Shown piece after piece: positions 21,001 through 24,000 of a DNA stretch of 37,934 bases. Numbering within the stretch: the first letter of the stretch is position 1; the number at the start of each line of letters is the position of its first letter. The DNA is from a virus (lineage: Duplodnaviria > Heunggongvirae > Uroviricota > Caudoviricetes). Made by a program: the position numbers. The DNA lies in IMG/VR virus record IMGVR_UViG_2534682329_000010. The stretch is one strand, 5' to 3'.

Positions 21001-24000
21001 CCACCAGCGTCATACCTGCAGACATAAATGTGGTGGTACGTTTTGAAGCCAAGGAAAAACCATCGCCTTCGCCATCGATATCTTCAGGAAATCGGTCGTA
21101 ATCAGTCAGCGCCACACATTTAAAATCAGAGGATGACATGACATTGATGGAAGGCCAGCCGATTTTCAGAAAGCTGCCCGACAGAAAATATTTGTCATGA
21201 ACGTTGTTATCGTTACGGCGTGGGCTGAGGCGTTTTCTGACCTCCGGGCTGCAACGAAATGTTCTTGCCAGGCGCTTTTTGGAGTGCTCCTGCGCCTTAT
21301 CCTGTGTCATCTGCACCAGCAAAAAGTCAGACGGATCGCAGACAATGTTATAAACCACCCAGCCATCAATCAGGCCGTTAGTCTTGCCCGTACGGGCAGG
21401 ACCACCAAAAACAACCGCATCAAACTCACGGGACGACAGGCAGTTCATGGGGTCAATCACATACGGTGCAACCATCGGATCCCACGGAACAGAGTTGCCA
21501 CCAGATGTAGGGACTCGCATAAATTTTTGTACCGCTTCGGCAACAGGCATTCTGCGCGGCGCTTTAATTAACTGGCCCGTATCCAGTTTCAACGATCTGG
21601 CGGTCGCCTGCACAGGCATTATTCGTCCTCCTGATTTTCCTCCTCTGTATCTTCCTGTTTGCTGTCATCTGCCACCCGCCGCGCAATTTCGTCACGCAGA
21701 TCATCAATAATGCTTTGCACCCGCATGACAGCCGAAGGCTCAAGAGCGCAATCGCGTTCAAGAATATCGGGGAGGGTTTCCAGAACCTGCACCATAGCCT
21801 TTGCCATTTCAGCAAATTCACGGGCGACATCAGACGCAGGGATCAGTTCTCCGACCTCCTGTTCGAATTTCAGGCGCTCACGTTCTGACTGATACCAGGC
21901 TTTTCGGTCATGGGGATCCATTTCTCCTTCAGCGACAGGCGGTGGCAACTTCATTAATTCTGCCAGAATATCAGTAAGTTTATACAGCTTGAGGTTACTC
22001 TCATGCCCACCCGCTGTTCGGATATTTTTGATTCTTGATGCGACAGTCTGTCGGTGCACACCCGACAGCGCAGCTAACTGGCTGACATTAAGAACAAGGT
22101 GTTTCAATTCCTTATCCACTTACCCCTCCAGTGATGAACAAAAAATAAGCATTTTCGACACCAGCTATTTTTTAACCTTTCATTATCAACAAATTACAGT
22201 GGTGGTGATGAACGATGAAAATGCAAAAATTTGGCGATTTCTGCGCATCCGTATCCCCTCGGTATTCCAAATTCCCAGGAAGGACCCGTGAAAATGGGAG
22301 CAATTATCATTTGCACACACTCTAACACCTGCATTATCGCAGCCCCTCACACTGAAGGGCTGCTGTAATGCCTGTTACTCAGTAACAACTGCGCCTTCCG
22401 GTAATTTCATACAGGCAAATACCGGACAACCAGGATGACGATCATCTTCTGTTGCTTCCAGCATTGACTCACCAAACCACTCCGTCGTGGCGCGACCATC
22501 AGCTGCTTTGTAGTGGATCAACTACTGGTTTTCGCCATCCGCACACTGCGCGCGGGCTTTAACCTCACCCCATTCATCACTGATGCGCATCTCCACCAGT
22601 TGAGACGACTCAAACTTAAACGGAGCAGCATCAGCACCAATTACAATCAGTTTGTTTTCTGTTTTTTCCATCATCGCCTCCTGATATCGAAGCCCGTCTC
22701 CGCACCGGGCACTGATCAACATTTGAGTATTCGCGGAGACAGAAAGAATTTATTTTATTGAGTAGCCACAAACACAGAATTTCATGCTTTCCTGACGCTG
22801 ATGTATCCTTCATTTTTCAGCAAAATATTCTGCTCTTACAGGCAATCAGTTCTGCAGACACTGCCGAACACCGTCGACAATTTCACAGACCTGAGAAACT
22901 GTATCGAAAAGCTGGCGCGCCTTATCAAGGCTAACGCATCCCACCGATAAAAAAGGCACCAGTACCGCTACCAGTGCCCATTTCGCCGCCGTTCGCGACA
23001 TTCTGTGTGTCCAGTGTTTTCGGCTCATATCACCACCAACGCACAGCCCAAATCAGAACAGCGACCGCCACAAGGCGAATTGCAAAGGCCGCAGCCCTTG
23101 TCAAATCAAGGCTCGCGGGAGTTTCCACTTCAATACCTTTCATAATGGACAACCTCAAAAAGAATCTTTTATACTTTCCCACGAGGATTTTCTCCGTACT
23201 CACTACTCACAATTTCCTCTTTGACGTGAAAACTAAAAACCCCGGACTGTTCCAGCAGCCGGGGTTTTTGCTATCTGATGCTGTACCCCTTACTTTCGCT
23301 CATCGTAACCCCAGAAAAGAGCCTGAATGAGTTGAGGGTGTTCAGCACTTCAGCGTCAGTTTTTAAACTGCTACTCGCTCTTTCATCCAGCCGTAGACAA
23401 ACGACTCGTTGGCCTCGCGTTTTTCTGCCAGCTCCAGATAGCGGTCACCCTGCGTGCAATTCAGCGCCTTCAACATCACCAGTTCGCCGTCTTTGCCGCG
23501 TTTTTGCAGATAAGTCCGTAGTGCATTAATCGTGCGGGGGCCGATACGCCCGTCTGCGTCCATATCCGGGAACAATTTGCCTTGCAGGTTGAAAACGTTC
23601 AGCCAGCGTTGGAGCATTTTCGATGCCACGGACGGCCCCATATTCACGCCGGTATCACACAACTCTGCGGCAATATCAGGGGATAATGCGGCGACCTGGT
23701 CGAAACGTGGCCCGAACCAGTAATCCGCCTCGAGTATTTCCAGCGCCTGCCCGCGCGTCAGGTCACGCATATCGCCGCGATATCCGTGAGCGCGGGCGAC
23801 TTTTTCCGTAATACCCCATTTTGTCGCCCCGCCTTTATCGTCCGGATGATTGACGTAGCCGCCCTCTTTTCCGAGGATTTCATCAAAAATGACGTCCTTT
23901 GATTTCATCTCAGTGCCTCAACAATGGAAAGATTCTTGTGACGTTACCGCGCGCGCGTATCACCAGCACGCAGAACAGCAGATTAAAAAACACTTCCAGC

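Follow-up and report, generated by a model that had tools for sequence, protein, structure and literature searches.

The stretch analysed here (the window) is the whole 37,934-nt sequence of the IMG/VR record IMGVR_UViG_2534682329_000010, which by its sequence is a phiP27-like prophage. The nearest characterised phage is the Stx2e phage phiP27, with a lysis-cassette identity of 95%. The late genes of the window lie on the minus strand in the order pertussis-like A/B toxin, two holins, GH108 endolysin, terminator, small transmembrane (TM) peptide and lipoprotein, and the lipoprotein is followed by a homologue of phiP27 L33 with an internal stop and then by the terminase genes. The TM peptide and the lipoprotein, which are the subject of this study, had originally been suggested to form a coupled pair, a candidate minimal spanin or Bor-like factor. 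Our analysis keeps the lipoprotein in the spanin position, whereas neither the two-component pair nor the kinship with Bor is supported. With confidence somewhat better than even, we read the lipoprotein gene as the last gene of the lysis cassette, most likely encoding an outer-membrane (OM) disruption factor that works without a dedicated phage inner-membrane spanin (i-spanin), and the upstream peptide as a separate gene. The features of the locus are listed below; TMD stands for transmembrane domain.

24178..24570, minus strand: holin A (Phage_holin_8), the first cassette gene (PF16931, E=1.8e-22; phrog_198, E=8.9e-43).
23910..24188, minus strand: holin B, a 3-TM Phage_holin_3_7 protein (PF05449, E=9.6e-22; phrog_217, E=1.5e-38).
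23363..23908, minus strand: endolysin with GH108 and PG_binding_3 domains (PF05838, E=3e-26; PF09374, E=1e-25; phrog_315, E=1.4e-53).
23234..23268, both strands: bidirectional, G+C-rich hairpin resembling an intrinsic terminator, A5-CCCCGG...CCGGGG-T5 (terminator scan).
23146..23175, plus strand: tentative sigma-70-like antisense promoter, TGGACA-18-TATACT, located in the initial peptide codons and directed toward the terminator (promoter scan).
23030..23182, minus strand: small membrane protein (phrog_4493, E=3e-23), 50 aa from GTG 23182 or 37 aa from ATG 23143.
22846..23028, minus strand: lipoprotein precursor of 60 aa (phrog_7528, E=9e-36), filling the spanin slot.

Both open reading frames (ORFs) are real genes under purifying selection. 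The ratio of nonsynonymous to synonymous substitution rates (dN/dS) is 0.15 for the lipoprotein (49 distinct alleles) and 0.087 for the peptide in its own frame, versus 1.26 and 4.08 in the other two frames. The first nine lipoprotein codons, which precede the second ATG used as the start by PGAP, have a dN/dS of 0.12, so the 60-aa form is the translated one. The close spacing of the two genes is confirmed: the TGA of the peptide is followed by one base (23029) and then by the lipoprotein ATG (23028). In addition, a Shine-Dalgarno (SD)-like GGTGG is found upstream of this ATG in two unrelated contexts.

The lipoprotein precursor is composed of a basic n-region and a hydrophobic core, followed by Cys31, which is preceded by L-S-V-G; the signal peptide comprises residues 1-30. 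Of the canonical lipobox and two Cys residues claimed for it, the latter are present as Cys48 and Cys57, whereas the former is canonical only in part. The S-V-G-C motif (L-S-V-G codons at 22936-22947) satisfies the PROSITE-type rule and misses the narrow consensus [LVI][ASTVI][GAS]C at position -3. When all six frames of the 37.9-kb window were scanned by the PROSITE-type rule, the lipoprotein was the sole matching ORF under strict settings, and relaxed settings added out-of-frame ORFs alone, which were judged spurious. Among 143 distinct homologues the family lipobox is L-V-G-C, in which -3 is Leu or, in occasional members, Phe, Pro, Val or Ile. At +2 the family has Val, Ala or Thr, never Asp, and the window protein has Val. 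The precursor carries an OM lipoprotein signal with no Asp at +2, as an outer-membrane spanin (o-spanin) does.

The mature lipoprotein has 30 residues (CVSLDKARQLFDTVSQVCEIVDGVRQCLQN) and is predicted to be an amphipathic helix bearing Cys48, which is invariant across the family, and Cys57, which is nearly so. The AlphaFold2 (AF2) model shows one helix over residues 11-59 with a confidence score (pLDDT) of 74. The window allele has a hydrophobic moment muH(18) of 0.55 and the family consensus one of 0.53, with a heptad-like hydrophobic face; the moment of the whole helix was reached by 236 of 5,000 shuffles. The mature part has a net charge of -1 and lacks Pro, and no hydrophobic segment follows Cys31, the C-terminus (...VRQCLQN) ending in the hydrophilic LQN. 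This lipoprotein signal without a C-terminal TMD sets the protein apart from unimolecular spanins (u-spanins), which possess both. Since the two Cys residues stand nine residues apart in a straight helix, they would not pair within one helix, and they probably join helices into oligomers, plausibly by intermolecular disulfides. This agrees with the spanin literature, in which periplasmic Cys residues are tied to intermolecular disulfides (PMC6139136). The AF2 models are single helices and are silent on oligomers or partners.

A lipoprotein of these dimensions could also be a protein of the colicin-lysis (bacteriocin release protein, BRP) or entericidin type, permeabilising the OM indirectly, for example by activating the host phospholipase OmpLA, and not as a fusogenic spanin. 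Release proteins are made as precursors of about 50-60 aa with an LLVGC-type lipobox, are about 30 aa long as mature lipopeptides and are encoded by the last gene of an operon with a product that has to exit the cell, so that size, layout and lipobox are all reminiscent of the window protein. Moreover, such a protein works without an inner-membrane partner, in keeping with the partner-less distribution described below, and genes for toxins (pertussis-like in the window, Stx2e or LT-II in relatives) are located in or just upstream of the late operon. However, there is no match to Lysis_col or Entericidin at E<=1 in Pfam, and the predicted amphipathic helix with conserved Cys contrasts with release proteins, which are Gly/Ser/Thr-rich and are not known to have such Cys. 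The long, conserved n-region was considered as a colicin-type stable signal peptide and rejected, because the most distant homologues have unrelated n-regions. We regard a release protein as quite unlikely.

Over its full length, the lipoprotein matches phrog_7528 (all 60 residues, on positions 1-60 of the 60 in the profile), the family of phiP27 L32, which PHROGs lists with unknown function. A profile search of 1.84 billion representatives returned 25 clusters (50% identity), all of them small lipoproteins of this family, and no bridge from it to a known family. Pfam gave no match at E<=1 to Bor, Rz1 (PF06085), Lysis_col (PF02402) or entericidin. Membership of either the lipoprotein or the peptide in the Bor, Rz1, Lysis_col, entericidin, Lpp/OprI or defence families was rejected, as Pfam, NCBIfam and PADLOC gave nothing significant, their sole output being NapE-type noise on the signal peptide. 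The family is found in Escherichia, Salmonella, Yersinia and Cronobacter. An unexpected host is given for PP818812.1 ('Actinobacillus phage vB_Apl-pPE4'), which has an E. coli-type cassette; its lipoprotein gene lacks an annotation and shares 98% identity with the family consensus.

Comparison with curated spanins, the check suggested at the outset, identifies the window lipoprotein as a homologue of the phiP27 o-spanin in SpaninDB (PMC6139136). This o-spanin (20706-20861 of the phiP27 record) is 51 aa long from the second ATG, and the window matches it at 88% (tblastn). Its periplasmic part was described as 30 residues, 83% helical by Jpred (PMC6139136), and phiP27 was listed as the shortest two-component spanin, of the 'separated' type, with 62 periplasmic residues (Kongari et al. 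2018, PMC6139136). The idea that the lipoprotein is a candidate spanin is thus already published, as a bioinformatic call. The i-spanin of this entry is a 64-aa TTG ORF (20348-20542, equal to 3841-4035, minus strand, of our phiP27 locus L001), which is present only in phiP27 copies, has no PHROG match and is absent from the window and all other loci. It lies antisense to a 90-aa ORF (L001 3779-4051, plus strand) that matches phrog_36812 (E=5e-20), and the i-spanin entry is probably spurious. The window and phiP27 therefore share a homologous lipoprotein at the same position, after two holins and an endolysin; they differ in that phiP27 is without the TM peptide of the window, and the window without the curated i-spanin of phiP27. 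From these comparisons the phrog_7528 family looks lipoprotein-only. Literature searches on these protein accessions and on o-spanin-only systems found nothing specific, and a paper on porcine Shiga toxin-producing E. coli (STEC) with Stx2e covers the holin alone.

The genomic setting of the lipoprotein gene is constant. At every locus compared (80 IMG/VR loci, one Salmonella genome and several E. coli genomes) it is co-directional with, and downstream of, the holin(s) and endolysin, and so lies in or beside the lysis cassette, where the genes of two-component spanins are located. In the commonest layout, an M15 endolysin is followed after a gap of 17 nt by the lipoprotein, with no TM peptide. 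At all loci without TM peptide, the endolysin (M15 or GH108) is separated from the lipoprotein by at most 17 nt or overlaps it, and these loci span two holin sets, PF16931 with PF05449, and PF05106. At least four backbones carry the lipoprotein, including phiP27-like, Mu-like and lambdoid ones, and it is present in 352 of 5,426 complete E. coli genomes. Distant homologues (about 40-60% identity; the lowest values, about 40-50%, are estimates from the sequences) keep the same place in the cassette. One follows a lambda-S-type holin and M15, another, in a Mu-like phage, follows holins and GH108 and overlaps the endolysin stop, and a third, on a different contig, follows a GH108 fragment; no membrane-protein gene was found beside the distant homologues examined.

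Upstream sequence was sufficient at 84 lipoprotein loci. A TM peptide is missing from 40 of them, the peptide of the window is found in 29, and the other 15 have a divergent 60-aa relative of it. Fourteen of these 15 also carry an unrelated 44-aa TM peptide (phrog_4906). In L044, for example, the 60-aa relative (phrog_1115; 9662-9844, plus strand) starts at an ATG with a strong SD, and the phrog_4906 peptide (9862-9996, plus strand) ends 4 nt before the lipoprotein ATG. Clustering of ORFs around 86 loci revealed no conserved type II membrane protein. In some relatives a 93-aa gene lies between the endolysin and the peptide; it was dismissed as an i-spanin candidate, since its product has no TMD and it is absent from the window. 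A different arrangement is seen in E. coli EC12 (L263 421-910), where a GH24 lysozyme gene is followed by genes for a 2-TM DUF7940 protein and a 93-aa i-spanin-like protein whose TMD is N-terminal. Beyond these come a 28-aa variant of the peptide and a lipoprotein gene with its 3' half replaced.

The region between lysis and terminase genes is rich in morons, and the lipoprotein might instead be an OM factor of lysogenic conversion or superinfection exclusion, comparable to Bor/Iss, Cor or T5 Llp. Like Llp, it is a small lipoprotein of the OM whose two Cys residues could form disulfides; relatives carry iss and ais in this hotspot; in the window a terminator parts the gene from the endolysin; and phages with the lipoprotein alone may simply lack a spanin. 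Bor and Iss, on the other hand, have a mature part of about 80 aa and their own promoter, are expressed in the lysogen and are usually encoded opposite the late genes. The window lipoprotein has 30 mature residues, lies on the late-gene strand, and matches neither the Bor/Iss profile (PF06291) nor any other family in Pfam or PADLOC. Its gene always runs in the direction of the late genes and, where no TM peptide intervenes, overlaps the endolysin stop or lies at most 17 nt from it, and the promoter scan found no promoter-like site on its strand. In addition, it occurs with unrelated virion modules, which argues against receptor-specific exclusion, it decays where Rz/Rz1 is present (see below), and a genuine iss/bor gene lies on the opposite strand beside it in the relative L004. 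A conversion role is therefore unlikely in our assessment.

The exchange between the lipoprotein and Rz/Rz1 provides further support for its placement in the spanin slot. No Rz/Rz1-type spanin had been evident after the endolysin, and tblastn with the Rz and Rz1 of a sibling prophage indeed gave nothing in the window. This sibling, in E. coli NY1601, is 99.4% identical over the structural genes, and its cassette contains the same two holins, M15 and a canonical Rz (phrog_13, E=4e-70) with embedded Rz1 (phrog_3198, E=8e-23). Rz/Rz1 is followed there by ais on the opposite strand and then by a 5'-truncated remnant of the lipoprotein gene (L005 34204-34347; also in L178). The product of ais is the lipopolysaccharide (LPS) core heptose(II)-phosphate phosphatase. 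In prophages of enterohaemorrhagic E. coli (EHEC), Rz begins after the peptide at the same ...TGGTGGTGAtATG junction where the lipoprotein begins in the window. This Rz family was found in 0 of about 160 lipoprotein loci, and an intact lipoprotein in 0 of 80 Rz loci. In O104:H4 strain 2009EL-2071 (L259 2501-2684), the lipoprotein copy that follows Rz/Rz1 and ais is disrupted by a frameshift and two in-frame stops, and the architecture of this decayed copy is present in 43 genomes. Such non-co-occurrence of intact Rz/Rz1 and lipoprotein genes is the pattern expected of functionally redundant genes.

The small membrane peptide was predicted as a 37-aa single-TM protein beyond the terminator. An ATG ORF of this length is indeed present (23143 to 23030, minus strand; MKGIEVETPASLDLTRAAAFAIRLVAVAVLIWAVRWW followed by the stop), but the start is most likely GTG 23182, outside the region originally delimited, which gives 50 aa. 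Four observations point to this codon. The KYKRFFLRLSI sequence upstream of the ATG is kept in a 45%-identical homologue that has an ATG and a strong SD at this position; the phrog_4493 profile begins there; the codon varies solely among GTG, ATG and TTG; and in L164 an indel disrupts the frame upstream of this codon. For a 57-aa reading, residues 9-57 align with positions 2-54 of the 56 in phrog_4493 (E=3.3e-23), and the L044 homologue covers positions 1-56 of 56. This family is related to phrog_1115 and phrog_3246 and is of unknown function, and the peptide has no Pfam, NCBIfam or PADLOC match.

In the AF2 model, the peptide consists of a basic amphipathic helix (residues 3-20) and a second helix (22-49) that includes the TMD, with a mean pLDDT of about 95 over residues 31-50. 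The TMD is C-terminal, with at most three residues (RWW) beyond it, and the net charge before it is +3. By the positive-inside rule, the peptide is thus predicted to be oriented N-in, leaving almost nothing in the periplasm. An i-spanin, by comparison, is a type II protein whose TMD is N-terminal and whose periplasmic domain is of considerable size; the peptide has neither feature.

These properties bear on the idea that peptide and lipoprotein form a true minimal two-component spanin, binding each other to bridge or fuse the membranes. The two genes are neighbours with coupled translation, only 1 nt lying between stop and start, and a small TM protein is encoded directly upstream of the lipoprotein in 44 of the 84 loci (in 14 of them including phrog_4906). 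Rare 1-nt deletions, moreover, fuse the two ORFs. However, 40 of the 84 loci have no TM peptide, nor is one found beside the homologues examined in other backbones, and the same peptide precedes a complete Rz/Rz1 in O157:H7, O111 and O104:H4. The 50-aa form would be N-in with essentially no periplasmic domain, and even the opposite topology would give about 60 periplasmic residues at most. In the predicted orientation, the pair would offer 30 residues plus no more than three, compared with a minimum of 62 in SpaninDB, a figure that itself comes from phiP27. We consider a two-component spanin made of these two proteins improbable. The fusion is found in P0012 (6 contigs), where a 1-nt deletion at TGAtATG joins the peptide variant MSADFIRAVAFAIRLVAVAVLIWVVRWW in frame to the lipoprotein; it may be natural or a sequencing error.

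The distribution of the peptide indicates an association with the lysis cassette rather than with the lipoprotein. It is present in 867 of 5,426 complete E. coli genomes (16%). The 80-90% identity band comprises 732 E. coli records, and each record inspected from it contains, in this order, a class II holin, lysozyme, the peptide and Rz/Rz1, as do O157:H7, O111 and O104:H4. In EHEC prophages the same TGAtATG junction is found between peptide and Rz, and the 1-nt stop-start junction is constant in the aligned peptide loci. Among 80 IMG/VR peptide loci, the lipoprotein comes next in 77 and Rz/Rz1 in 3, whereas complete E. coli genomes show the opposite balance, and at all 88 peptide loci examined the peptide is located between the endolysin and an OM-disruption gene. 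The hairpin between endolysin and peptide (23234..23268) accompanies the peptide and is unchanged in relatives having another upstream gene; the fold of 23176-23285 (plus strand) has a z of -3.3. Terminator and peptide together thus form a mobile module, coupled to whichever OM-disruption gene comes next. Particularly, the SD-like GGTGGTGA of the downstream gene comes from the last codons of the peptide, TGG TGG TGA, which may be one reason why RWW is invariant. On this comparative evidence the peptide is a separate, optional gene of the lysis cassette, not the partner of the lipoprotein and not an i-spanin. Its role is most likely accessory or regulatory, exerted at the inner membrane or in the expression of the downstream gene.

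The 5' end of the peptide gene harbors a possible regulatory element. The tentative promoter in its first codons recurs at the same codons in the diverged versions L164 and L044; from promoter to terminator, the element covers 23146-23272 (plus strand) in the window and corresponds to L164 5945-6079 and L044 9592-9698 (minus strand). The Rfam model of sar (RF00262) scores 23.3 bits at 23169-23272 (plus strand) and 23.2 bits in L044, below the gathering score of 43, and gives no match at E<=10 in L164, L167 or L009. The synonymous rate (dS) of the peptide is 0.10 in codons 1-13 versus 0.52 in codons 14-29, a five-fold reduction. Together these features suggest a possible cis-antisense RNA of about 90 nt covering the SD and start of the peptide. 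The arrangement resembles that of P22 sar, the regulator of ant, in having an antisense promoter within the 5' end of a gene, an RNA over its ribosome-binding site and termination at a hairpin, and the loop of the sar-like hairpin in the window, CUGUUaCCGCAG, is nearly identical in L044. It differs from P22 sar in a score of about half the gathering threshold, a 36-nt insertion and a target gene other than ant. A Salmonella locus with an ant-like gene upstream of the lipoprotein has no sar-like element.

It might then be asked whether the cassette has taken up a type I toxin-antitoxin-like or sar/ant-like antisense module that has the peptide as its toxin, with an incidental link to the lipoprotein. 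The peptide is small and hydrophobic, the antisense promoter-like site and the bidirectional terminator are kept in three diverged versions, two of these versions give sub-threshold sar matches, the first 13 codons show suppressed synonymous change, and terminator and peptide move as a unit between cassettes. Yet the sar scores are about 23 bits against 43, with L164, L167 and L009 giving no match, the promoter hexamers lie in conserved codons and may be explained by coding constraint, and no sense-strand promoter was found. The constant position between the endolysin and an OM-disruption gene, at 88 of 88 loci, argues for a role in lysis, and we give the toxin reading very little probability.

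Returning to the lipoprotein as an OM disruption factor, a course of events can be proposed. Late transcription would read through the hairpin terminator, as in lambdoid layouts of the Q type, and ribosomes ending the peptide at UGA would restart 1 nt on at the lipoprotein AUG, with GGUGGUGA as SD. The precursor would be exported, lipidated at Cys31, cut by signal peptidase II and, because +2 is Val and not Asp, sorted to the inner leaflet of the OM, as expected from the Lgt/LspA/Lnt/Lol pathway. The predicted mature part would be a 30-residue, amphipathic, heptad-patterned helix, with the two conserved Cys residues probably linking helices into oligomers. Once the holins have fired and the GH108 endolysin has removed the peptidoglycan, the OM-tethered helices may destabilise the OM. 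They might do so by direct perturbation or insertion, by contact with the inner membrane as the envelope collapses, or indirectly, for example by activating OmpLA.

Several points weigh against this reading. All functional statements on the two genes come from comparative genomics and prediction. The 30 mature residues would form a helix of roughly 4.5 nm (an estimate), which cannot bridge the periplasm, and a fusion mechanism would therefore need an unseen partner or some other mode. The mature part is not cationic, unlike the phiKT disruptin. Ser at -3 of the lipobox is unique to the window allele among the 143 distinct homologues; it may impair lipidation of this allele, and given this residue and the internal stop of the neighbouring gene, the window copy may be impaired even if the family works. 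The search for Rz covered one family and was complemented by de novo scans, so that an unusual i-spanin could have escaped. The decay beside Rz/Rz1 appears to represent two evolutionary events, both with an ais insertion, which could itself have severed expression of the lipoprotein, and one decayed copy (L260) has no Rz nearby.

Compared with lambda Rz/Rz1 (PF03245/PF06085), the lipoprotein occupies the same slot, is swapped at the same start codon and is likewise an OM lipoprotein with periplasmic Cys. It differs in having no sequence similarity, in being helical rather than Pro-rich, in the lack of gene embedding or overlap, in having no type II partner and in being too short for the periplasm; it neither matches the Rz1 profile (PF06085) nor has a Pro-rich mature region. 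The u-spanin gp11 of T1 is likewise the product of one lipoprotein gene that follows the endolysin and has no partner; unlike the window lipoprotein, which has no second anchor, gp11 has a C-terminal TMD and several periplasmic beta-strand elements. The gp28 disruptin of phiKT is similar as a short amphipathic peptide, whereas the window protein is lipid-anchored and has a net charge of -1; the disruptin is not known to be lipidated. The disruptin is a cationic peptide (bioRxiv 10.1101/515445). In 31 genomes a lipoprotein without a linked i-spanin was reported (Kongari et al. 2018, PMC6139136), and the window would join these and phiKT, both of which are treated as spanin-less, in a group where no canonical spanin can be assigned to OM disruption. 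The small membrane peptide, for its part, resembles Lcc6 of LambdaSo, which has a single TMD and a cytoplasmic part of 43 residues. It has no homology to Lcc6 or to the Mu releasin gp25, its TMD is C-terminal rather than N-terminal, and its gene lies inside the cassette, coupled to a spanin gene. Lcc6 is essential, whereas the window peptide is optional across relatives; both Lcc6 and the Mu releasin are examples of small membrane proteins on which lysis can depend.

A bolder proposal, which we offer tentatively and hold to be rather doubtful as a whole, is that a third kind of OM-disruption device serves phiP27-like phages and some Mu-like and lambdoid ones, a lone lipid-anchored, amphipathic 30-residue helix (phrog_7528) with neither an i-spanin nor a second membrane anchor. 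The separate 50-aa protein (phrog_4493) would gate or tune the expression or action of the next OM disruptor and would itself be checked by a sar-like cis-antisense RNA. In about 13% of the phages that infect Gram-negative hosts, no spanin can be recognised, and their way of breaching the OM is an open question in phage lysis. The lipoprotein family offers a tractable E. coli case, a 30-residue lipopeptide exactly in the slot of Rz/Rz1, and occurs in toxin-converting phages (Stx2e, Stx2k, LT-II and pertussis-like). The comparison also corrects a curated entry, the i-spanin of phiP27 being probably spurious, and flags an uncharacterised, strongly conserved small membrane protein in the lysis cassettes of O157:H7, O111 and O104:H4. 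If this peptide affects the timing of lysis, the release of Shiga toxin could be affected too.

The remaining genes of the cassette agree with annotated relatives. The longest ORF of holin A reaches 24612, and annotated relatives begin with MSEPLSG; their 393-nt form is named 'putative holin' by PGAP. Holin B overlaps the end of holin A; its longest ORF extends to 24242, the family match covers residues 19-110, and relatives are annotated with 92 aa. Just upstream of the holins, 24706-25458 (minus strand) encodes a pertussis-toxin-like, Scabin-like ADP-ribosyltransferase A subunit (PF02917, E=2e-17), preceded by the toxin B subunit at 25436-25849 (minus strand; PF02918). In phiP27, the slot of this toxin is taken by stx2e, and other relatives carry Stx2k or LT-II genes elsewhere around the cassette. 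Downstream of the lipoprotein, the phiP27 L33 homologue (22375-22722, minus strand; phrog_1935) is divided by an in-frame TAG into ORFs of 66 aa and 48 aa. This stop is shared by E. coli NY1601, where PGAP annotates the gene as a pseudogene.

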